A DNA stretch of 36,670 nt from Candidatus Woesearchaeota archaeon UBA119 (GTDB lineage Archaea; Nanobdellota; Nanobdellia; Woesearchaeales; UBA119), in the NCBI GenBank assembly GCA_002505945.1, contig DAWM01000022.1, positions 19,032-55,701 on the forward strand. Reading direction: 5' to 3'. Shown piece after piece: positions 3,548-23,471 of this stretch (position 1 is its first letter; each line of letters begins with the position of its first letter). A model generated the notes under the pieces. The model did no database searches. It saw nothing but the letters and a program-made list of their open reading frames with translations, and was not told the origin of the DNA. The translations under genes were made by a program, and so were the position numbers.

Positions 3548-4531
3548 ATGAAGCTTAAACTAAGCATGGTTTTGTGTATCATAATGATGGTTCTTTTTAT
3601 CTCGGCTTGTCAAAAAGATGACGATGATGAAAAACCAGAGATTAAGGAAATTAAAGGTGGCATAGATGTCATCATAGAGGAAGGCTCTCTTCCTGAAGGG
3701 GTTATCCGAAACAAGGTTTTCCCTCTAAGTTTTAAGTTGAGGAATACCGGTAGGTCATCTGCTTCCGGAGTTGTTACTGTAAAAGGAACATCGTCATTTC
3801 TTGAATTCAAAGATACCTTTGGAACCTCAACCACAAAATCTTTCTCCTTCTCAGCTCTACCCGGCAGATCTACTCTCTCTGCCAATCCTCCTGAGAAGGC
3901 GTATGAGCTCACTGTAAGGCCATACTTGGATGATTTAACAGAGTCAAAAACAGTAAACATTGAGTTTATGTTGTGCTATACTTATTCTTTGGTATTTAAG
4001 CAGAGTGTCTGTGTGGATACAAGGCCTAATTTGCCCTCAGGTGATAAGGCTTGCACATATATGTCTCAATCCTTTAAAGGTCAGGGCGCTCCTATAAATG
4101 TGGTTTCTCTTCAACAAAGGACCTATACTGAGGAAGAGGGATATGGGCTTAAAAGGAAAGTAGAATTCATAATTACAATAAGGAATATGATGGAAGGTGC
4201 CCCCATTCCTGTTGAATCCGCTCTTCCTGGACCAAATAATTATTGCCAAGGGGGTAAACTCCCTGAAGGGGTTAATATGGGTTATGTTGAATTTGGAAGC
4301 ATTCGTTTAGGGGATGTAACCATGGGAACCCGTAAACGGGGTGTAGAGTTTGAGTGTTCAGGCATGAAACTAGGACAAAGAAAAGTTCCTTTTGTTAATA
4401 ATGAAGCTCAAATAGTTTGTACTGCTACCTTTGATGAGGATGTACAGCCTTATACTTCTCTACTTGAGGTCCCGCTTTACTTTGGTTATTATTCAGATAT
4501 GGTAGTCCCTATAAAGATTTATAGAAATTAA
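3548..4531 (+). CDS. secreted lipobox protein, 6-Cys family, paralog 1 (function unknown)
   Basis: The signal peptide MKLKLSMVLCIIMMVLFISAC carries a lipobox (I-S-A-C), followed by an acidic linker. CARDB-like strand motifs are present (FKLRNTGRSS, FIITIRNMMEG). It shares landmarks with the next two genes: C-Y-x-Y-x9-C, (S/G)QGAPI, and 6 conserved Cys. A TATA-like aataatataaatt lies ~25-30 nt upstream of the ATG. Confidence 0.8.
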   Translation: MKLKLSMVLCIIMMVLFISACQKDDDDEKPEIKEIKGGIDVIIEEGSLPEGVIRNKVFPLSFKLRNTGRSSASGVVTVKGTSSFLEFKDTFGTSTTKSFSFSALPGRSTLSANPPEKAYELTVRPYLDDLTESKTVNIEFMLCYTYSLVFKQSVCVDTRPNLPSGDKACTYMSQSFKGQGAPINVVSLQQRTYTEEEGYGLKRKVEFIITIRNMMEGAPIPVESALPGPNNYCQGGKLPEGVNMGYVEFGSIRLGDVTMGTRKRGVEFECSGMKLGQRKVPFVNNEAQIVCTATFDEDVQPYTSLLEVPLYFGYYSDMVVPIKIYRN

Positions 4532-4581: not shown

Positions 4582-5520
4582 ATGAACCTTAAATATAAAC
4601 TGTTTTCAATAGCTCTTGTTTGTATGATTCTTGTTCTTACCGCTTGTCAGCAAGGGGAAGATAAAGACAATGAGGCAAAAGGAACCAAAGGCATAGATAT
4701 CGAAACAAGTATGCTTAATGACAATCTTTACACAACTGAATCCCAAATGGATTTTGGAGTTATTCTGAACATTACTAATAGAGGATATCACAATGTGAAA
4801 CCCTCTGATTTCATCTTAACTTATTCAGGTTTTGATGAGGGCTTAGTCGACCTTTATGATGCTCCTAAAACCTTTTCTAGTTCAAATGATGAGATACTCT
4901 TTGGTGCAGATCCCTTTCATGAGGGAACTACCTACCCGGTATTAGTTTCTGGCAATGTTCATCTGCCATGGGCTTCCCAGGAAACTGATTTTGAGTATCA
5001 TATGAATTTATTCGTCAAATATTGCTATAGATACAAAACCGTGCTTTCTTCAGTGGTATGCATAGACCCCTCTCAAGGATATGACTCCAATGCAGCTTGT
5101 AAGATGAGGAAAGTCCATTTCTCTGGAGGTCAGGGAGCCCCCATAGTGTTTACAGAAGTAATGCCCATTGTTGCCTCTAATAAGGTGGTGTTTCAGGTCT
5201 ATTTAAAGAATGGTGGAGAGGGTCTGGCATTCCCTTCAAAAGGGATTTTTGGGAGTTCTCCTCTTATGAGTTGTGCAGACCTAGAGAGGAATTCTCAGAA
5301 TTTTGCTCAATTAACCGTAGAAGCAACCTTAGGGGGAAAAACTGTTGAATGCACCCCTAATCCTGCCAAGGTAGACTCTGAAGGCACCTATGTTTTATGT
5401 AGTTTTGGTAAACCCGACAAGGAGACTGGTGCATATTCTGCTGTTTTAAACCTTGAAACAGAGTATGTATATGTAGATTCGGCTGATGCTCCTGTGAGTA
5501 TAACTTTCCTCAAAGAATAA
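4582..5520 (+). CDS. secreted lipobox protein, 6-Cys family, paralog 2 (function unknown)
   Basis: MNLKYKLFSIALVCMILVLTAC carries a lipobox (L-T-A-C). Family landmarks are present: LNITNRGYHN, KYCYRYKTVLSSVVCID, SGGQGAPIVF, VYLKNGGEG. There are 6 Cys after the lipobox Cys, in the same order as in paralogs 1 and 3. Confidence 0.8.
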   Translation: MNLKYKLFSIALVCMILVLTACQQGEDKDNEAKGTKGIDIETSMLNDNLYTTESQMDFGVILNITNRGYHNVKPSDFILTYSGFDEGLVDLYDAPKTFSSSNDEILFGADPFHEGTTYPVLVSGNVHLPWASQETDFEYHMNLFVKYCYRYKTVLSSVVCIDPSQGYDSNAACKMRKVHFSGGQGAPIVFTEVMPIVASNKVVFQVYLKNGGEGLAFPSKGIFGSSPLMSCADLERNSQNFAQLTVEATLGGKTVECTPNPAKVDSEGTYVLCSFGKPDKETGAYSAVLNLETEYVYVDSADAPVSITFLKE

Positions 5521-5609
5521 AACTAATATCCTTTTCTGAGGTCAAATGGAAAAATATAAATACTATTATTCAAATAGATTAACTAAATAGAGTGGTTCAG
5601 GTGAATAAG

Positions 5610-6575
5610 ATGAAAAGTTATTACGTTCTTGGTGTTCTGCTGGTTCTATCTTTGCTCTTAACAGGTTGCGATTCTGGTAATGGTAGTGATGAGGACAAAA
5701 TTGAGAGTGGTTTCATTGGGGGAACTAGCGGTCTAGTACTTAGGTGGTATACCCCTGAGCAAGGTTATTTTACCCTCTTGGACAATGGCAATGATGAAAT
5801 ACTCTTAGAACTCCAGGTGGAAAATCTTGGGGAAGCCGATGTGCCCGCAAATAAGGCAACGGTTTCTTTATCTGGAATCTCTTCTAGGGATTTCAACCTC
5901 CAAAAAAATGACCTGACTCAGAAGTTAGAAACTGATTTAAGAGGCATGTTTAAATTAAATGATAAAAAGAGAGATGGGGACCAGACGGTTGTTTCTTTTG
6001 GCCCTATTAAATATATCCCCAAGGTAAGCACCGATATCACTATGCCTGTAATTGCAGAGGTTTGTTATCCTTATAAAACAAGTGCTGAAGCAGTATTATG
6101 TATATCTGAAGATCCAGTAGATTCTGCTGTTTGTGAACCCAACGGAGATAGACCGGTCTATTCGTCCGGCGCTCCTATTCAGATTACAGATTTCACTCAA
6201 GAATCTGCTGGTAAAAATACTTTTATTATTACATTTACTATAAAACATGCGGGAAATGGAGAGATCTTCAAAAGTGGAGAAGGATGTGATTCTCAGGATT
6301 TCTCATCTCAAGGAATTGTGAATGTCAAGGTTGGCAACAAAGAAGATTGGGGATGGAATAGCATAAATGTAAATTGCAATGGTAATCCTGTGGGTGAATA
6401 CTTTACTCAGAGGCTTAGATTCGGAGATGAGAGCACTGTAAGATGCACAGTAGAGGTTACCGATTCTATGGTTGGCGATTATGTAAGAGCATTACCAATA
6501 GAGCTTCAATATGATTACTCCTCAAGCGTATCCACAACCCTTAGAGTCCAATCTTCTTCAGGCTCAGGAGAGTAA
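5610..6575 (+). CDS. secreted lipobox protein, 6-Cys family, paralog 3 (function unknown)
   Basis: MKSYYVLGVLLVLSLLLTGC carries a lipobox (L-T-G-C). Family landmarks are present: LQVENLGEAD, EVCYPYKTSAEAVLCIS, SSGAPIQIT, FTIKHAGNGE. The track start is a GTG at 5592. The ATG at 5610 follows cAGGTGa (5598-5604) by 5 nt and gives a normal n-region. Confidence 0.8.
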   Translation: MKSYYVLGVLLVLSLLLTGCDSGNGSDEDKIESGFIGGTSGLVLRWYTPEQGYFTLLDNGNDEILLELQVENLGEADVPANKATVSLSGISSRDFNLQKNDLTQKLETDLRGMFKLNDKKRDGDQTVVSFGPIKYIPKVSTDITMPVIAEVCYPYKTSAEAVLCISEDPVDSAVCEPNGDRPVYSSGAPIQITDFTQESAGKNTFIITFTIKHAGNGEIFKSGEGCDSQDFSSQGIVNVKVGNKEDWGWNSINVNCNGNPVGEYFTQRLRFGDESTVRCTVEVTDSMVGDYVRALPIELQYDYSSSVSTTLRVQSSSGSGE

Positions 6576-6646: not shown

Positions 6647-7612
6647 TTATGATAACGAGGCTATCTTAGCAAGTAGGGCTTCCAGTTGTATGATTGGATC
6701 CGAACCCTCTATAAGTCTAAACTCTACCTCCCCGCAATAGCGCACTATCTCCAGTTTTTCCTTGTCTTCCAAGCCCTCCATATTAACAATCTCTTTCTGA
6801 ATCTGCTTGATGACATCTATCCCAGAGAGCCCATACTGAAGCATAGTATCAATCAATTTGTCTCTGGCTTTAATGAATTTCTTATCTTTGGCAAGCCTCA
6901 CTATGGTTTTTATCTCCTCGGGCCTTGCCATAGAACCAATAGAATAAACAAGCTTTTCATCAATCTTATCAGACAAGGCACTACAGGCCTGCATGATATT
7001 TTCCAATCTTCTACAGTCCCCTTCAGAAATCTTGAATAAGGCCTCCTTGCCCTCTTTTGTAATCTTCAAATCTTCCTGCTTGGCAATCGTATCTATAATC
7101 TCAAACATCTGCTCCTTCTTGAGCGGCTTAAACCTAAACAGAGCGCATCTTGATTGAATAGGGTCTATAATCATACTAGAATAATTGCATGCCAATATAA
7201 ACCTGCATGTCTTTGTATAATTCTCCATAATCCTCCTTAACGCCTGCTGGGCATCTCTTGTCAATGCATCGCTCTCGTCAAGATAGATTATCTTGAAAGG
7301 AACATCACCTATCGCCCTCGTCCTAGCAAAGTTCTTGACTTTATTCCTTATAACATCTATTCCTCTTTCATCGGAAGCATTGAGTTCCATGAAATTATTA
7401 CGCCAGTTCTCTTCAAACAATTTCCTTGCAACCACCATAGCGAGGGTAGTTTTCCCCACACCAGCAGGTCCAGAAAAGAGGAGATGAGGCATATTCTTCT
7501 TATCAACAAACCCCTTGACCTTATCTACTACATTCTCCTGGCCTTTTATATCAGAGAACCTAGAGGGTCTGTACTTCTCAGTCCATATCTCACTCCTTGC
7601 TACCTCTTTCAT
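6647..7612 (-). CDS. rfcS: replication factor C small subunit (clamp loader AAA+ ATPase)
   Basis: WTEKYRP N-terminus (RFC box II), Walker A GPAGVGKTT, Walker B LDESDALT, SRC motif (IQSRCALFRF). At 321 aa it is colinear with archaeal RfcS. Confidence 0.95.
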   Translation of the reverse strand: MKEVARSEIWTEKYRPSRFSDIKGQENVVDKVKGFVDKKNMPHLLFSGPAGVGKTTLAMVVARKLFEENWRNNFMELNASDERGIDVIRNKVKNFARTRAIGDVPFKIIYLDESDALTRDAQQALRRIMENYTKTCRFILACNYSSMIIDPIQSRCALFRFKPLKKEQMFEIIDTIAKQEDLKITKEGKEALFKISEGDCRRLENIMQACSALSDKIDEKLVYSIGSMARPEEIKTIVRLAKDKKFIKARDKLIDTMLQYGLSGIDVIKQIQKEIVNMEGLEDKEKLEIVRYCGEVEFRLIEGSDPIIQLEALLAKIASLS

Positions 7613-15112: not shown

Positions 15113-16219
15113 ATGGAATTATCCGCAGCCCAGAAAAGGAAATTGAAGAGATTCGTTGAAGAGCTTGACCAATATAAAGGCAGGCATACCGAACTTGTCA
15201 GTGTTTATATCCCTCAAGGATACGATATGAACAAGATAATCAATCACCTTTTGGATGAGCAAGGCACTGCTACGAATATTAAGTCTAAGCAGACCCAAAA
15301 GAATGTTATAGCTTCTCTTGAAAGGATGATACAGCATTTAAGGCTGTTCAAGAAAACTCCGCAGAATGGATTGGCGGTCTTTGCAGGCAATGTTGCCGAG
15401 AGAGAAGGTCAGTTAGATGTTCAGGTCTGGAGTATTGAACCGCCTATCCCTCTTAATTTCCGCATATACCGATGTGATAAGGACTTTGTTTTAGACCCAT
15501 TAAAAAAGATGTTGGAGTCAGATGACCTCTTTGGCTTGGTTGTATTAGACAAAAGGGAAGCCAATATAGCTTTATTGAAGGGTAAGAGGATAATTCCGCT
15601 TGCTAAGACAACATCTAATGTTCCAGGGAAGACTAGGGCTGGAGGCCAGTCAGCTCCTAGATTCCAAAGGCTTAGAGAAGGAGCCACTAAGGATTTCTTT
15701 AAGAAAATTGCTGAGTATGTTAAGGAATCATTCCAGGATAGAGATCTTAATGGGATGATTATTGGAGGTCCAGGTCATACAAAGAATGAATTCGTTGATG
15801 GCAACTTCATCCCAGAGGCCTTGAAAAACAAGATTATTGCGGTAAAGGATTTGAGCTATACCGGAGAATATGGGCTCCAGGAGCTATTGGATAAAAGCGA
15901 AGATGTTCTTGCAGAAGAACAAGTATCTAAGGAAAAGAAATTGATGAAAGGCTTCTTTGAGACCTTGGCAAAAGAGCCGGGAAAGGTTGCCTATGGCAGG
16001 GATGAAGTATTTCAACTTCTAGAGAGAGGAGCAGTGGAAAAACTCCTTTTGTCTGATGAGTTAGATGATGAAACAATTGAGGAGTTTGAAAAGAAGGCAG
16101 AGGAATTCTCCAGCGAGGTTGAAGTTGTATCAACCGAGACTAATGAGGGAGTGCAATTGACAAACCTTGGCAAAGTCGCTGCCTTCTTGCGATATAGTAT
16201 AGATGCCGACCAATTATAA
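15113..16219 (+). CDS. prf1: peptide chain release factor aRF1
   Basis: NIKS stop-codon recognition motif (TATNIKSKQ), YxCxxxF motif (YRCDKDF), and GGQ (RAGGQSAPRF). At 368 aa it is colinear with archaeal/eukaryotic class-I RF. Confidence 0.95.
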   Translation: MELSAAQKRKLKRFVEELDQYKGRHTELVSVYIPQGYDMNKIINHLLDEQGTATNIKSKQTQKNVIASLERMIQHLRLFKKTPQNGLAVFAGNVAEREGQLDVQVWSIEPPIPLNFRIYRCDKDFVLDPLKKMLESDDLFGLVVLDKREANIALLKGKRIIPLAKTTSNVPGKTRAGGQSAPRFQRLREGATKDFFKKIAEYVKESFQDRDLNGMIIGGPGHTKNEFVDGNFIPEALKNKIIAVKDLSYTGEYGLQELLDKSEDVLAEEQVSKEKKLMKGFFETLAKEPGKVAYGRDEVFQLLERGAVEKLLLSDELDDETIEEFEKKAEEFSSEVEVVSTETNEGVQLTNLGKVAAFLRYSIDADQL

Positions 16220-16944: not shown

Positions 16945-18381
16945 TTATATAAGGTTAAGTTCTCCGAGCATCTGCAAAGCCTGCATATCATCAATAATCT
17001 TATCCGCTTTAAGTTGATTGATTAAACTCCCTGCCTGCTTAACATTAATCTGTTTCTGCTTTATCAGCCTATCTATCGCCCAGGTTACCATCCTTTGATT
17101 AGGATTATCCTTGTAATTCTCTTTTAATGCCTCTGCAATCAATTGAAGGTTTGTTTTGCCTTTCAAACTTTCTATATATATCTGTTTTTCCAATCTTTCT
17201 ATAGGATTATCATTGTTCTTTTTCTTTTCTGTTGCTTCTTTTTTATCCTTCTTCTTTTCTTCAAGAATATCAGAGATATCTAGCCACTCCTCCTTCTTTT
17301 CAATGTACTTGTCTAAATCAAGATGCTTGAATTCCTCTTTATCTCTTTCTTCTTTTGGCTTAACGGCCGATTTCTCAAACTCGGTGAATGGTTCCAAGTT
17401 GATCCTTGGTTTTATATTGCTTGGATTCGTTGATCTCCGAGGCTTACTTGCTGTGGTAAACCGGTGCTTATCTCTGTTCTGGGAGCCCTCGCTTGGAAAA
17501 GGGAACCGCAGATTTAAGTCCGGCTGGATATTAGATGTTTGCTCTTCTGAATTCTTCCTTTTCTTGAGCAAACTTATTAGGATTATTATGGCAGTTAAAT
17601 TCAATCCTATGGAAAACGTGAGAACGATTATTAAAGGCAGATTCTTATTAATGAATTCCATAGCTTGAGGAAACGACAGGGTTGACCTTTCCTTATTATC
17701 ATCCTGATTCTCTTCATTATTCTCAGGCTTATCAACCCCCAAATAATATGTTATTCTCTTTGTTTCTTTCCCATCGTATTCATTATAGCATTCTACAATG
17801 AAACTTGTTTTTCCCTTTTTCTGCGAAATCTCCATAACTTGAATCCTGTGGTTAGTGTCGTTAAGATTCTGCATAGTGAATGTCCCTTCCTCCGCTTTGA
17901 TATTGCAGATAGACTTTTTCGTAGTCCTTACATTGATATAGTCAGATAATGCGATAGAATCCAAATCTGAAGGAGACACATGAGTTATAAGAAAAGGGAT
18001 GTTCCCTTGTGCGTCTTCTTCCTCTTTGTTCTCCTCGGTAGAATTGTCCTCAAAAGATATATTAATCTCGAAGGCCTTAAAGTCTTCCTGGTTTTCTAAT
18101 CCATCACACCAGCCATTTATGACTTGGTTTACTGGTTCAACCTGATATTCAAAGACTTTGTTTTCGGAGTCAACTGCAGACAAAGTTTTTATTTCTCCAT
18201 TTTCTATATAACACTTAGCTGGGGTATCCGTTTCTATAATAAGTATATCTTGGTCATCTTCTTGCGTCAGATTTACATTTGTGGTAAGAGAGTATGCAAT
18301 AGGCAAAACAAGCAAAACAACACCTAATACAAGAATCCATCTTAACTTTGAGCAGAGTTCCGGATTTTTGACCCAAACCAC
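16945..18381 (-). CDS. orphan single-pass membrane protein with a duplicated Cys-containing ectodomain and a K/E-rich cytoplasmic tail
   Basis: N-terminal hydrophobic segment (LRWILVLGVVLLVLPIAYS). Two similar ~110-aa extracytoplasmic segments follow (..TPAKCYIENGE.. and ..KKSICNIKAEEG.., each with a second Cys). Then comes a TM helix (LPLIIVLTFSIGLNLTAIIILISLL), a basic/acidic low-complexity tail, and a helical C-terminal domain. The GTG start at 18381 is uncertain. Confidence 0.6.
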   Translation of the reverse strand: MVWVKNPELCSKLRWILVLGVVLLVLPIAYSLTTNVNLTQEDDQDILIIETDTPAKCYIENGEIKTLSAVDSENKVFEYQVEPVNQVINGWCDGLENQEDFKAFEINISFEDNSTEENKEEEDAQGNIPFLITHVSPSDLDSIALSDYINVRTTKKSICNIKAEEGTFTMQNLNDTNHRIQVMEISQKKGKTSFIVECYNEYDGKETKRITYYLGVDKPENNEENQDDNKERSTLSFPQAMEFINKNLPLIIVLTFSIGLNLTAIIILISLLKKRKNSEEQTSNIQPDLNLRFPFPSEGSQNRDKHRFTTASKPRRSTNPSNIKPRINLEPFTEFEKSAVKPKEERDKEEFKHLDLDKYIEKKEEWLDISDILEEKKKDKKEATEKKKNNDNPIERLEKQIYIESLKGKTNLQLIAEALKENYKDNPNQRMVTWAIDRLIKQKQINVKQAGSLINQLKADKIIDDMQALQMLGELNLI

Positions 18382-18476: not shown

Positions 18477-18493
18477 GAAAAACTTATTAAGAA
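18477..18493 (+). promoter_or_regulatory. TATA-like box for lgt
   Basis: gaaaaacttattaagaa, centred ~27 nt upstream of the ATG at 18513, with no SD box. Confidence 0.3.
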
Positions 18494-18512
18494 AACCTCC
18501 TAAAGGCATATT

Positions 18513-19331
18513 ATGCTGACATATGAACCACATCCTGTTTTATTCTCCCTCTTTGGATTTGAAATAAGGTATTATGGACTCTTTTACCTGATTGGCTTCT
18601 TAGTTGTGTTTTTTATGTATAATCGCCTGTCTAAGAGATTAAAAGGCTTAAATCATTCAAGAGACAAAGCCTTTGAGATGCTTTTTTGGGGCTTGGTGGG
18701 GGGAATATTCTTTGCCCGCCTCTTTTATGTTTTCTTTTATGACTTCTCCTATTACTCAACTCATATTCTTGAATCCTTCTTAATCTGGAAAGGTGGATTA
18801 TCATTTCATGGTGGGCTGGTTGGTGCTGTGTTTTTTACATATCTTTTCTGTAAGCATAACTCTATCGATTTTCTTGAGGTTGCAGATATTGTGGTAATCC
18901 CTGCTGCTTTGGCACTTGCCTTAGGAAGACTAGGTAATTTTCTCAATGGGGAATTATATGGCAGAGTAACAAATGTGCCCTGGGCTGTCCGTTTCACGAC
19001 TGATCCTCTATTAAAACCAAGACATCCTTCTCAGATATATGAATCTTTCAAGAATGTTTTAATTTTCCTTATCCTTTATCTGTTCTTCAGGCTTAAGTAT
19101 ATAAGAATGAAAGTAAGGGAAAGAAGAGGCTTAATCTTAATATACTTTATTTTTCTTTATGGCCTGTTTCGCTTCTTTGTAGAGTTCTTTAGAGCTCCTG
19201 ATCCGCAATTGGGTTTACTCTGGCTTGGTTTATCAATGGGTCAGTGGTTTTCTTTGTTTATGGTTATTTCAGCATTCTTGCTCTACTTCTTTAAGAGATA
19301 CAAGCAAAACTCTGCTCGGATAACCAATTGA
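18513..19331 (+). CDS. lgt: prolipoprotein diacylglyceryl transferase (bacterial-type Lgt)
   Basis: All the Lgt signature blocks I know from E. coli Lgt are present and colinear: YGLFYLIGF, GGLSFHGGLVG (HGGL motif), LGRLGNFLNGELYGR (E. coli GRLGNFINGELWGR), and PRHPSQIYES (E. coli RHPSQLYE). The protein is a 7-TM-like polytopic protein of 272 aa. Confidence 0.9.
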   Translation: MLTYEPHPVLFSLFGFEIRYYGLFYLIGFLVVFFMYNRLSKRLKGLNHSRDKAFEMLFWGLVGGIFFARLFYVFFYDFSYYSTHILESFLIWKGGLSFHGGLVGAVFFTYLFCKHNSIDFLEVADIVVIPAALALALGRLGNFLNGELYGRVTNVPWAVRFTTDPLLKPRHPSQIYESFKNVLIFLILYLFFRLKYIRMKVRERRGLILIYFIFLYGLFRFFVEFFRAPDPQLGLLWLGLSMGQWFSLFMVISAFLLYFFKRYKQNSARITN

Positions 19332-19536: not shown

Positions 19537-20358
19537 ATGATTGTGAATGAAGAATTTTTAGGAAAGCTGAGAAATTACTTTTCTTTAAACCTTTACGAGG
19601 TGAAGATATGGACTGCCTTGCTCTCAAGAGGGACTGCAACTGCAGGGGAGCTTTCAGATATAGCTAATGTTCCTCGTTCAAGAAGCTATGATGTCCTGGA
19701 GAGCCTTGAAAAGAAGGGTTTTGTCATCATGAAGTTTGGCAAACCAATAAAGTACTATGCGGTTCCTCCAGAGGAGGTTATCTCCAGAGTAAAGAAAAAC
19801 CTTCGTAAGGAAACAGAGAAGCAAATTAAGAAGATAGAGAATGCTGCATCTGGCGAAATCCTAAAGGAACTCAACATGCTTCATTCTCAGGGGGTTGAGC
19901 TGGTTGAACCCCCCGAGAGAAGTGGAAGCCTCAAAGGAAGACATAACCTCTATAATCATTTTGAGTTCTTAATGAAAGGAGCAGAAAGGACTGTTACAAT
20001 TGTTTCAACTGCTCAAGAGCTTATAAGGATTTCTGAGAGCATAAAAGAGGTATTGGAATCTGTTGCCAAAAGAGGGGTAAAGATTAGGATTGCCACCTCT
20101 CTAGGTAAGTCTGTTCAAAAGGCTGTGAATAACCTTAAGGGGATTGCCGAAATCAGAGAGATGAAGGGAATCATGGCCAGATTTATCGTTATTGATGGTA
20201 GGGAATTGACCTTTATGCTACACAACGATGAGGATGTACATCCTTCCTTTGATGTGGGAATATGGGTCAATACAGAATTCTTCGCTTCAGCCTTGGAGAA
20301 TCTGTTTGAACTGGCTTGGAGGGAGATGAAACCTCTGAAAGTAAAAGCTGAGAAGTAG
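19537..20358 (+). CDS. TrmB-family transcriptional regulator
   Basis: N-terminal LNLYEVKIWTALLSRGTATAGELSDIANVPRSRSYDVLESLEKKGFV (TrmB wHTH), then a coiled-coil linker and a C-terminal TrmB-type domain. AAGGTGG lies 8-9 nt upstream of the ATG. Confidence 0.8.
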   Translation: MIVNEEFLGKLRNYFSLNLYEVKIWTALLSRGTATAGELSDIANVPRSRSYDVLESLEKKGFVIMKFGKPIKYYAVPPEEVISRVKKNLRKETEKQIKKIENAASGEILKELNMLHSQGVELVEPPERSGSLKGRHNLYNHFEFLMKGAERTVTIVSTAQELIRISESIKEVLESVAKRGVKIRIATSLGKSVQKAVNNLKGIAEIREMKGIMARFIVIDGRELTFMLHNDEDVHPSFDVGIWVNTEFFASALENLFELAWREMKPLKVKAEK

Positions 20359-20545: not shown

Positions 20546-20582
20546 TGGCATGCTTAGAGTCTTCATTTATTGGGGTGAACAT

Positions 20583-23471
20583 ATGAGCGAAGAAACATCA
20601 AAGCAGAGAAAGAAACAAGATGATACAAAGGTTGTAATCAACATCCTCCTTTTTGTTGTCCCCCTTTTAATATGCTTATTTTTAAGGGTTACTCCATACT
20701 ATATTCCAATTGCAGACCAATGGGCTCATCAAACAGTATATAATTCTTTGCAGGCCCAGGTTTATTCCCGGCTTCAATCCTCTTATCCTGGCTTAGGACC
20801 ACAAGAACTGCAGGATGTTGTTAAGGAGGAAGTAAACAAAGTTATTCAAGAACAAGGAGCAGAGTTGGCACAGGCCGAGCAACAGACTGCTGAAGCATTT
20901 AGGAATAGGCTCAGAAATGATAACGGTACAACCTATCTCTTGGCGATTGATCCTTACTATTATCTAAGAAATGCTCAAAACATATTGGAGCATGGATATG
21001 AAGCAGATATTAAGACTGAGAGAGGTTATATTGATACTCATATCTTTGGAGGACTGCCTATCTCAGCAAGAAATGCTGCTCCTGACAAGATCCAGAATAT
21101 TCTTCCTTGGATTGAGGCATACCTTTTTAGAATTCTTAATTTCTTAGGTTTTAATATAGATTTGATGGCTGTTGCTTTCTTCACTCCAGTTATTCTTGGT
21201 TTATTAACGGTTATCATTGCTTTTTTTGTGGGAAAGGATATCTCAAAGAGCAATATTGGTGGATTCTTCGTTGCTCTTTATGTGGCAATCCACCCTTTCC
21301 TTCTTTCAAGATCCTTAGGCGGATTTGCCGATACCGATATTTTCAATGCTTTATTTCCATTGGCTTTGATTTTCTTCTTTTTCAAGCTTCTTGAATCAAC
21401 ATCACTTAAGAAAAAGCTTTTGCATTCTGCTCTTTTTGGGCTGGTGCTGGCAATATATACCAAAGCATGGGGGGGCTGGTGGTATACGTTTGATTTGATT
21501 CTTTTGTCAATTGTGATTTATGCAGTATACCGGATTTTCTTCTCCTTTATTCTCTTCAAAAAACATTCGAGAAGAACCCTCGGTTCAAATGTTCCGGGAA
21601 AGCTTTCCTCGGACTTAATCTCAATCGGACTGCTCTTGCTTTTCTCATGTATATTTGTTTCTTTATTTATTGGGTTTAATTCCTTCATCAATTCTCCTTT
21701 AGCAGCTTTAAGGGGAACAGAGCTTAAAGCTGTTTCCAAGGGCACTATCTGGCCAAATGTCTTTACAACTGTTGCTGAACTTAATCCTGGTGATTTTGGC
21801 AGCATTGTGCAGAATAACGGAGGCTGGTTAGCTGTATTGGTTGCTTTCTCTGGGATTGCATTGTTGTTGAAGAGGAAAGGAAGCATCATCGGTCCAAAGA
21901 TGGCCCAGTTCTTCTTGGTTCTCTTTTGGACATTAGCAACCATTTATACTGTTTATTCAGGGGTGAGGTTCAACCTGTTGATAGTGCCTGCCTTTGCATT
22001 GGCTTGGGGGATTGCTTCTGCAGTAATCATAAATCAAGGTTCTTTATGGGTTAAGAAATTAATAGATATCCCTGAGAAGACTGCCAAAGTTGTATTATTT
22101 GCTCTTCTGCTTTTGATTTTAGTGTTGCCGCAATCTACTGCTGGCGGAGACACCCAGAGTGGAATGTTACCTAATGCAATCAATACTGCAAGAGGTCATA
22201 CCCCTCAGATGGCAGATGCTTGGTTTGAAACCTTAACTAAAATCAAAGAGGAAAGCGAAGAAGATGCGATAATCAATTCATGGTGGGATTTTGGTCATTG
22301 GTTTAAGGCAATTGCAGACCGCCCTGTTACATTAGATGGTGGAATTCAGAATAATCCACAGGCTCACTGGCTGGGTAAACTCATGCTTACTAATGATGAG
22401 AGACTTTCTGTAGGGATACTAAGGATGCTTGATTGTGGTGCAACCTTAGCTTATGATACAATATACAACTTAACTAATGATGATCTGGAAGCCATTGATA
22501 CCTTATATAAAATCCTAGAGATGGACAGAGATGAGGCAAACTCTTTCCTGGAAGAGAAATTCGGTAAAGAAGATGCTTTAAGAGTTCTTAATTATAGCCA
22601 TTGCAACCCTCCTGAAAACTACTTTATAGCTTCAGAGGACATGGTAAGCAAGTCAGGCGTGTGGGCTCACTTTGGCTCATGGAATTTTACCAAGGCCAAG
22701 ATGTTTTATGAAGTCAAATCAAGGAAGATTGATGAGGCAAGGGAATTTCTGAAAGATAGATTTAATTTTAGTGAGGTAGATGCTGCAAATTATGTTACAG
22801 AGATAAGATCTGTTGAAAATGCAGATTACTGGGTAGCTCCTTGGCCAAGCTATGTTACTTCTGACTTCACTTTATGTCAGAAAATAAATGATTCTTGGGT
22901 AAGATGCATGAAATCCTTTAGTTCCAATCAGGGTGTAGTCTTAAATATAAATGTTGATGATATGCGGGCTTATGCAATGGTTAATCAAAACACTCAGCTG
23001 GAAGTGAGAAAGTTTGTTTTCAGCAAGGATGATGAGGTTTATGTAAGGAACAAGCCTGATTCTGGATTCAACTATGGAGTGGTCTTAAAGGAAGAAGGAG
23101 GACAATACAGTTTTGTCTTGTCTGACACTCAGTTGGCTGACAGCATGTTTACTCGATTATTCTTTTTAGATGGTGCAGGAACCAATTACTTTAACCTCTT
23201 TTCACACAAGACTGATATGTTTGGCAACGATATTTATGTATGGAAGGTTGATTGGAATCCGAATGAAATAAAGGATAACTTTCATATTGTTGAAGAAGAC
23301 GAAGCTGTTGGGTTGATAGATAATCAAGAGAGTACAGAACAAGAAGAAGAAACTGAGGTAGGAGGAGAAGAAGACCAGACCGAGAAAGAGGAAGTAGAGG
23401 ATATTGAAAACATTTCTTCCATAATTAATTCAACCGAGCAAATGAATCTAAGCCTGGAAAATGGCAGCTGA
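20583..23471 (+). CDS. aglB: archaeal oligosaccharyltransferase AglB (STT3 family)
   Basis: WWDFGHW (the WWDYG catalytic motif), an EL1 LAIDPYYYLR block (compare the STT3 DPYFNYR block), a 13-TM-like N-terminal half, and a soluble C-terminal half. The start is moved to MSEETSKQ (ATG at 20583) on SD and promoter geometry. Confidence 0.9.
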   Translation: MSEETSKQRKKQDDTKVVINILLFVVPLLICLFLRVTPYYIPIADQWAHQTVYNSLQAQVYSRLQSSYPGLGPQELQDVVKEEVNKVIQEQGAELAQAEQQTAEAFRNRLRNDNGTTYLLAIDPYYYLRNAQNILEHGYEADIKTERGYIDTHIFGGLPISARNAAPDKIQNILPWIEAYLFRILNFLGFNIDLMAVAFFTPVILGLLTVIIAFFVGKDISKSNIGGFFVALYVAIHPFLLSRSLGGFADTDIFNALFPLALIFFFFKLLESTSLKKKLLHSALFGLVLAIYTKAWGGWWYTFDLILLSIVIYAVYRIFFSFILFKKHSRRTLGSNVPGKLSSDLISIGLLLLFSCIFVSLFIGFNSFINSPLAALRGTELKAVSKGTIWPNVFTTVAELNPGDFGSIVQNNGGWLAVLVAFSGIALLLKRKGSIIGPKMAQFFLVLFWTLATIYTVYSGVRFNLLIVPAFALAWGIASAVIINQGSLWVKKLIDIPEKTAKVVLFALLLLILVLPQSTAGGDTQSGMLPNAINTARGHTPQMADAWFETLTKIKEESEEDAIINSWWDFGHWFKAIADRPVTLDGGIQNNPQAHWLGKLMLTNDERLSVGILRMLDCGATLAYDTIYNLTNDDLEAIDTLYKILEMDRDEANSFLEEKFGKEDALRVLNYSHCNPPENYFIASEDMVSKSGVWAHFGSWNFTKAKMFYEVKSRKIDEAREFLKDRFNFSEVDAANYVTEIRSVENADYWVAPWPSYVTSDFTLCQKINDSWVRCMKSFSSNQGVVLNINVDDMRAYAMVNQNTQLEVRKFVFSKDDEVYVRNKPDSGFNYGVVLKEEGGQYSFVLSDTQLADSMFTRLFFLDGAGTNYFNLFSHKTDMFGNDIYVWKVDWNPNEIKDNFHIVEEDEAVGLIDNQESTEQEEETEVGGEEDQTEKEEVEDIENISSIINSTEQMNLSLENGS

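Follow-up and report, generated by a model that had tools for sequence, protein, structure and literature searches.

Identity of the gene at the locus

The subject of this report is a gene at positions 18513–19331 (plus strand) in a stretch of 36,670 nucleotides from Candidatus Woesearchaeota archaeon UBA119 (assembly GCA_002505945.1, contig DAWM01000022.1, positions 19,032 to 55,701), referred to below as the window. The original prediction, made from the letters of the window, had read this open reading frame (ORF) as a canonical bacterial-type prolipoprotein (diacyl)glyceryl transferase, Lgt, with all the signature blocks of the family. The ORF was found exactly as given there, with an ATG start and 272 residues comprising seven transmembrane helices. 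It matched the Lgt family of Pfam (PF01790) over model positions 1–239 of 240 (E = 2.6e-72; 243.5 bits, cut-off 24.9) and the NCBIfam equivalog TIGR00544 at 189.7 bits (cut-off 118.9). The signature GRLGNFxNGELxG was present as GRLGNFLNGELYG at residues 138–150, at the end of the fourth transmembrane helix; the other blocks were FHGGLVG, which holds H99, and RHPSQIYE at residues 170–177.

Among solved structures the sole relative was Lgt of Escherichia coli (5AZB/5AZC; sequence E = 1.9e-41, HMMER alignment). Alignment to 5AZB placed Y26, G27 and H103 of the E. coli enzyme at Y21, G22 and H99 of the window protein; G142, R143, G145 and N146 at G138, R139, G141 and N142; E151 and G154 at E147 and G150; and Y235, R239, E243 and R246 at Y216, R220, E224 and R227. 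Every residue found indispensable in E. coli Lgt by mutagenesis, with its role described by Mao et al. (PMC4728403), was the identical residue here, and the loss of catalytic residues that had been named as a danger to the annotation did not materialise. Most catalytic positions were invariant in two alignments, one of 18 archaeal homologues and the other of 39 archaeal and bacterial homologues; R139, N142, F143, N145, E147 and G150 were invariant in both. The AlphaFold2 model of the window protein was of high confidence (predicted local distance difference test, pLDDT, 94.2; predicted template modelling score, pTM, 0.89), and a Foldseek search of this model against the PDB gave one significant match, which was again 5AZB (E = 8.8e-15; template modelling scores 0.76/0.73). 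Since profile scores, catalytic residues and fold all agreed, membership of the Lgt family is certain to the limit of sequence analysis, and the gene probably encodes a catalytically active enzyme.

The two proteins share the seven-helix fold, the motif and all essential residues, together with the partner enzyme LspA and the lipobox of their substrates. They are ~31% identical over the Foldseek structural alignment. The window protein differs in its shorter periplasmic head, in the segment from NGELYG to RHPSQ, which is ~20 residues shorter, and in having no equivalent of E. coli Y259. The settings of the two pathways differ also, as the host here is an archaeon that appears unable to make its own membrane lipids, and there is no Lnt step.

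Lipobox substrates and partner enzymes

Three plus-strand ORFs of the window encode predicted lipoproteins. The first (3548–4531; lipobox LFISAC) has no Pfam match and is a candidate substrate of Lgt and LspA; the second (4582–5520; LVLTAC) is a distant paralogue of the first, and the third (5592–6575; LLLTGC) a distant paralogue of the second, at ~25% identity. The co-residence of three lipobox proteins with lgt had been pointed out beforehand, and these ORFs proved to be real. A scan of the whole genome for signal peptides ending in [LVI][ASTVI][GAS]C returned 13–14 ORFs, the three paralogues included, which puts a number on the lipobox proteins to which the original prediction had drawn attention. 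As a control, the same pattern was rerun with all 19 remaining residues in turn at position +1, and the counts were compared with background frequency. This showed that Cys at +1 was enriched ~10-fold over its frequency of 1.3%, while the other residues stood at 0–2-fold.

The genome holds one LspA, of 161 aa (G000:C77:2265-2750, minus strand; PF01252, E = 1.4e-25), which aligned to LspA of S. aureus and P. aeruginosa and retains the two catalytic Asp motifs (ITDF and FNVADS); the short contig that carries it, C77, also encodes a class II aminoacyl-tRNA synthetase. A homologue of Lit was identified at G000:C23:4102-4716 (minus strand; PF07314, 57.8 bits, cut-off 24). In a sample of 41 Woesearchaeales genomes from ~37 families (the window genome and 40 relatives), Lit scored above the Pfam cut-off in 26, the window genome included; among 14 control genomes, the same search matched only in Lactococcus. 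Comparison with Lit of Bacillus cereus (7B0O) showed that the His85/His153 dyad, Asp88, Phe157 and Trp162 were all conserved, H76 and the His within FGLFHTVLFSDGSWIFP aligning to His85 and His153 respectively; the roles of these residues, and the near-invariance of Phe157, have been described (PMC8275575). A search for LspA and Lnt had been proposed at the outset, and only the former was found: Lnt (TIGR00546) gave no match above the cut-off in the window genome or in any of the 40 relatives. In one relative, a 430-aa ORF (G033:C1:41040-42107) covered most of the Lnt model below the cut-off (62 against 132.9 bits) and may encode a divergent membrane protein of the CN-hydrolase type.

The same three enzyme families make up the Firmicute-type pathway of Enterococcus, B. 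cereus and Lactococcus, which leads to the lyso-form lipoprotein (7B0O, PMC8275575) and which, as here, has no Lnt and serves a single-membrane cell. The catalytic His dyad, Asp88, Phe157 and Trp162 are common to Lit in both, although the match here is limited to the C-terminal 60% of the Pfam model, and the archaeal Lgt sequences score closer to those of Gracilicutes than to those of Firmicutes.

Distribution of Lgt and its alternation with AliA

Lgt was present in 38 of the 41 genomes of the order. In a wider sample of the phylum, drawn evenly to give 201 genomes from 144 of 157 genera (mostly with group codes for names), 184 genomes contained Lgt, several of them assembled as single contigs, and 184 contained LspA. 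The two occurred together in 177 genomes, were both missing from 10, and occurred each without the other in 7 (Fisher p = 1.3e-8). No internal stop codon was seen in the Lgt of any sampled genome. Lgt is a routine component of this lineage, and not the peculiarity of one archaeal contig that it had first seemed to be; it had been foreseen that such a result would lower the novelty of the gene while leaving its annotation intact, and this is the case. Outside the lineage the picture was otherwise. Among 30 named archaea spanning the phyla, which were reached through a 16S signature, Lgt was confined to the three Woesearchaeota; it was found in none of the sampled Micrarchaeota, Aenigmatarchaeota, Nanohalarchaeota, Halobacteria, Methanosarcinales, Methanomicrobiales, Archaeoglobi, Thermoplasmatota, Bathyarchaeia, Nitrososphaeria, Thorarchaeota or Sulfolobales.

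AliA and AliB, the first enzymes of lipoprotein lipidation identified in archaea, were described recently (PMC12462473, Nat Commun 2025). According to that study, archaea have no known homologues of Lgt or Lsp, in line with what the original prediction had said of the literature on Lgt; it also reports that lipoproteins are abundant in DPANN, where the distribution of AliA has gaps, and that some genomes have many lipoproteins without AliA or AliB. HVO_2859, the AliA of Haloferax, carries the annotation DUF63 family protein (PMC9426492). DUF63 (PF01889) was detected in only four of the 201 phylum genomes, all of them among the ten that lack both Lgt and LspA, and in none of the 191 with Lgt or LspA, the window genome included. 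Positive controls (M. jannaschii, H. volcanii and M. acetivorans) all matched. Among the 30 named archaea, DUF63 was absent from the three Woesearchaeota and present in all three Micrarchaeota, the Nanohalarchaeote, methanogens, Archaeoglobaceae and two Thermoplasmata; each of three haloarchaea had two copies, as is expected for AliA plus AliB. AliA and AliB of Haloferax volcanii (arCOG02177/02178) do the same job as Lgt, i.e., lipidation of the lipobox Cys in secreted proteins (PMC12462473), yet have no detectable sequence homology to it; AliA is thought to attach an archaeol-type lipid and has no known signal peptidase II partner. The complementary phyletic distributions of the two mark them as functional alternatives, and on the simplest interpretation AliA gave way to the bacterial enzymes in an ancestor of Woesearchaeales and related orders.

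Departures from the general pattern were also noted within the phylum. Lgt, LspA and DUF63 were all missing from six small, nearly complete genomes of the same class (G053 and G168 of family f77; G066, G112, G133 and G211 of family f81). Some genomes had 3–6 matches to Lgt (G219, G062, G089, G209 and G018), and in G037 an ORF of 366 aa matched the Lgt model in three pieces, suggesting insertions. Members of family f80 fell in two separate places of the Lgt tree, so that duplication of Lgt, or its exchange within the phylum, does occur.

Genomic context of lgt

The window lies within a 63-kb contig of a metagenome-assembled genome (MAG) of 1.04 Mb in 86 contigs, estimated to be 86.5% complete with 0.17% contamination. 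The neighbours of lgt had been described as archaeal, and were identified as such: aRF1 (15113–16219), the small subunit of replication factor C (6647–7612, minus strand), STT3/AglB (20550–23471) and a TrmB-family regulator (19537–20358, plus strand; Pfam TrmB, E = 7.5e-20), the last being a conserved downstream neighbour that is cited for context only. A candidate archaeal promoter of a leaderless mRNA occupies 18477–18512 (plus strand), where an A-rich stretch is accompanied by TTATTAA (18484–18490), ~26 nt upstream of the lgt ATG and TATA-like as read by eye; the original prediction had described the promoters as of BRE/TATA type.

The composition of the gene, which had been singled out for comparison with its neighbours, was native. 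G+C content was flat along the window; lgt had 36.9% G+C, and 37.1% at third codon positions, where the genes of the genome averaged 37.9 +/- 3.3 and 37.8 +/- 5.5 respectively. Its synonymous codon usage fell at the 10th percentile among genes of similar length, within the normal range. Gene order was conserved: 12 genes around lgt were collinear in an independent assembly from the same genus, and the order lgt-trmB-aglB was kept in two genomes of the same family and in another of the same genus. Comparison of lgt with a copy from the same genus gave a proportion of nonsynonymous differences (pN) of 0.15 against a saturated synonymous proportion (pS) of 0.76, a sign of purifying selection. Within the genus lgt diverges faster than its neighbours, being 74% and 62% identical in L022 and L008, against 92–93% for aRF1 and TrmB.

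Relatives identified by sequence carry the labels Candidatus Woesearchaeota or Nanoarchaeota. Four MAGs from binchicken assemblies labelled 'uncultured Methanosarcinales archaeon' (L022, L024, L028 and L030) had an Lgt of Woesearchaeota type; the contig of L022 is collinear with the window, and these labels look wrong.

Phylogeny of the archaeal Lgt sequences

The window Lgt was 43–50% identical to those of other Woesearchaeota and 37–45% identical to those of Pseudomonadota, Nitrospirota, Desulfobacterota and Acidobacteriota. Lgts from these four bacterial phyla scored 210–290 bits on the archaeal profile, while those of Firmicutes, Chloroflexota, Cyanobacteriota and Spirochaetota scored 87–190 bits. 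All named proteins among the best 120 database matches to the window Lgt were archaeal.

The archaea formed one clan (98 by the Shimodaira-Hasegawa-like approximate likelihood ratio test, SH-aLRT) in a first tree, which set 53 archaeal sequences beside 70 others, most of them from Gracilicutes. A broader, unrooted tree added Firmicutes, Chloroflexota, Cyanobacteriota, Spirochaetota and Actinomycetota; Candidate Phyla Radiation (CPR)/Patescibacteria were not among its taxa. Here Gracilicutes and Terrabacteria each formed a strongly supported clan (100/96 and 100/99), and both clans excluded every archaeal Lgt. A small archaeal subgroup (L095, L118 and L119) adjoined the long Terrabacteria stem, a placement that may reflect long-branch attraction, and approximately unbiased (AU) tests did not reject monophyly of the archaeal sequences (p = 0.47 and 0.115). 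Of the two outcomes that had been envisaged for such a phylogeny, nesting within bacteria was not seen, as the archaeal Lgt falls inside none of the modern bacterial phyla sampled, and a single archaeal clan appeared in the first tree only. It is concluded that the entry of Lgt into the lineage was ancient, or that the gene came from an unsampled group such as CPR. Separately, the Lgts of contigs labelled Streptomycetaceae, Arachnia and Eggerthellaceae (L060/L367, L277 and L072) grouped with Betaproteobacteria or Desulfobacterota, which is likely due to mis-binning or wrong labels.

Lgt is considered universal in bacteria. Among archaea it is restricted to a single class, with AliA in the neighbouring groups, which makes a transfer out of bacteria into Woesearchaeota the most economical direction; and as the gene is compositionally native and syntenic, any such transfer would be ancient. 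Acquisition of a bacterial pathway had been suggested from lgt and the lipoboxes, and the suggestion has gained from the LspA and the Lit homologue that accompany them in the genome.

Proposed pathway and donor lipid

The explanation that we consider best, and think quite probable, is that these archaea possess a working Lgt-LspA-Lit route of bacterial type, imported from bacteria in the distant past, which took the place of AliA. A precursor with a signal peptide ending in the lipobox pattern given above would be exported by Sec; Lgt would attach the glyceryl-lipid part of a phosphoglycerol lipid to the thiol of the lipobox Cys; the LspA encoded on contig C77 would then remove the signal peptide ahead of the lipidated Cys; and the Lit homologue of contig C23 would probably shift the sn-2 acyl chain to the new N-terminus, to give a lyso-form lipoprotein without any Lnt. 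Such a three-enzyme route, of the type known from monoderm bacteria, would be the usual way in which Woesearchaeales and the related orders of the class mature their lipoproteins, having come from bacteria long ago and displaced the archaeal AliA (DUF63).

Which lipid is transferred had been posed as a question, and the genomes now hint at ester-type bacterial lipids, through the presence of Lit and the absence of two groups of lipid enzymes. GGGP (geranylgeranylglyceryl phosphate) synthase catalyses the committed step to archaeal ether lipids. It had no credible match in any of the 41 Woesearchaeales genomes, while four of four archaeal controls matched. CDP-alcohol phosphatidyltransferases were absent from the window genome and its whole family, and were found in 20 of the 41 genomes of the order. 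Motif scans by regular expression, which are weak evidence, found no PlsY, PlsC, CdsA, GpsA, CFA synthase or CDP-alcohol phosphatidyltransferase in the window genome. The absence of GGGP synthase and of head-group transferases indicates that the organism takes its lipids from elsewhere, in agreement with published views of this DPANN cluster (PMC7414124). In the mechanism of Lit, the amino group of the Cys attacks the sn-2 ester carbonyl (PMC8275575). This reaction is impossible on an ether-linked isoprenoid chain, and the retention of Lit with an intact active site therefore suggests that what Lgt attaches is a diacylglyceryl group with ester linkages, drawn from phosphatidylglycerol of bacterial type. 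The chance that the donor is such a lipid, and scavenged, appears about evenly balanced. Use or modification of the lipids of bacterial partners by Woesearchaeia has been proposed on other grounds (PMC11868695, PMC8204110). A fuller reading, in which Woesearchaeales and their sister orders run Lgt, LspA and Lit on phosphatidylglycerol scavenged from bacterial partners, so that their membranes cross the 'lipid divide' and AliA was displaced as unfit for the available lipids, is put forward tentatively, as something that may well prove untrue.

Several observations weigh against these interpretations. As regards the bacterial origin, the archaeal Lgts of the broader tree lay midway between the Terrabacteria and Gracilicutes clans, so that the phylogeny points to no particular bacterial donor, and in bootstrap trees they were never a single clan, owing to the subgroup of L095, L118 and L119. 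As regards Lit, the match in this genus covered model positions 70–176 only, the C-terminal 60% of a family with a four-helix architecture, where relatives from other families matched positions 2–176; and Lit was below the cut-off or missing in 15 of the 41 genomes. As regards the lipid, those relatives that have CDP-alcohol phosphatidyltransferases may make their own phosphoglycerol lipids; archaeol membranes, if such they are, would oblige Lgt to use archaetidylglycerol; and, at 86.5% completeness, absences from the window genome alone are soft, those that extend to its whole family being firmer.

Other accounts of the data were weighed against an ancient import. A bacterial gene might have been mis-assembled or mis-binned into an archaeal MAG, or have reached this one genome very recently; the fragmentation of the genome into 86 contigs and the wrong public labels in the same clade would be in keeping with this, yet lgt is flanked on either side by archaeal genes, midway along a 63-kb contig, the same 12-gene order occurs in an independent assembly, Lgt is present in complete genomes of a single contig (e.g., G020, G029 and G059), its G+C content and codon usage are native, and all named close homologues are archaeal. 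Chimera or contamination, which had been named as the chief hazard, and recent transfer alike are ruled out by synteny, complete genomes and composition, and the probability left to an artefact is negligible. Alternatively, Lgt might descend from the common ancestor of archaea and bacteria and have been kept only here, AliA being a radically rearranged derivative of it elsewhere. The position of the archaeal sequences outside all sampled bacterial phyla, and their exclusion from both bacterial clans with the support given above, would fit this history, and it has been suggested that AliA may derive from the Lgt family (PMC12462473). It would, however, need many independent losses, given Lgt in one archaeal class and AliA in the sister DPANN phyla and Euryarchaeota; the identity of the window Lgt to those of Gracilicutes (37–45%) is close to that within Woesearchaeota (43–50%), which is unusually high for a split at the level of domains; LspA and Lit would require the same history; and many other bacterial systems have entered Woesearchaeota (PMC8204110). 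Vertical descent is accordingly thought improbable.

The remaining alternative concerns the substrate rather than the origin of the enzyme. Lgt may have been retuned to archaeal lipids, moving a diphytanylglyceryl or digeranylgeranylglyceryl group from archaetidylglycerol of an archaeal host, as is assumed for the lipoproteins of haloarchaea, with Lit doing something else or nothing. The organism is itself an archaeon, and every DPANN member in cultivation lives with an archaeal host (10.1101/2023.02.24.529834); DPANN take up host lipids (PMC7414124), the CDP-alcohol phosphatidyltransferases of 20 of the 41 relatives could make archaetidylglycerol, and the phosphate/glycerol-binding R143 and R239 (E. 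coli numbering) would suit either lipid. Against this, 26 of the 41 genomes retain Lit, its catalytic dyad intact, and Lit cannot act on an ether chain, AliA, which handles archaeal lipids elsewhere, was lost, GGGP synthase is found nowhere in the order, and archaeal lipids have the opposite glycerol stereochemistry. Such retuning seems to us rather unlikely, while deserving more weight than vertical descent.

An enzyme that could bear on the supply of lipid was noted outside the window, at G000:C64:149-1147 (plus strand). It is a membrane-anchored, Cys-rich protein with two HKD motifs (PLDc_2, E = 2.9e-30), resembling an outward-facing phospholipase D or cardiolipin synthase; it could cut or exchange the head groups of scavenged phospholipids, for example making phosphatidylglycerol for Lgt.

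Relation to existing annotation

Taken as a single gene, lgt is ordinary biochemistry, and its annotation is not new, as NCBI and JGI already name such proteins prolipoprotein diacylglyceryl transferase (e.g., MBW2977187.1 and MFC1728106.1); its value lies in its distribution and what that implies. Full-text literature searches tied Woesearchaeota or DPANN to Lgt or signal peptidase II only in two versions of the AliA study, which deny such homologues, and the main survey of bacterial systems in DPANN (PMC8204110) makes no mention of Lgt or signal peptidase II. The alternation with AliA is the main new result, to which are added the phylum-wide statistics of co-occurrence, the broader phylogeny and the lipid argument. 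A diverse archaeal lineage in which Lgt, LspA and, in many members, Lit alternate strictly with AliA is a clean case of one lipidation system replaced by another, and for this group it answers how archaea rich in lipoproteins lipidate them without AliA or AliB. Were the fuller reading given above true, it would also explain the published puzzle of lipoprotein-rich DPANN that lack both enzymes. The finding itself bears on two harder problems, namely the membrane lipids of uncultivated Woesearchaeota and whether their partners are bacteria, and Lit provides a chemical prediction that is open to mass spectrometry.

Two further loci were recorded. Two genes from the Lit homologue, G000:C23:1728-2903 (plus strand) encodes a member of the queuine/archaeosine tRNA-ribosyltransferase family (PF01702, E = 8e-125); Castelle et al. 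are said to have reported bacterial queuosine genes in DPANN in 2021. Within the window, an orphan membrane protein without a Pfam match is encoded divergently from lgt at 16945–18381 (minus strand). It evolves very fast, with 49% identity in a comparison of two congeneric genomes, where its neighbours are 72–93% identical.

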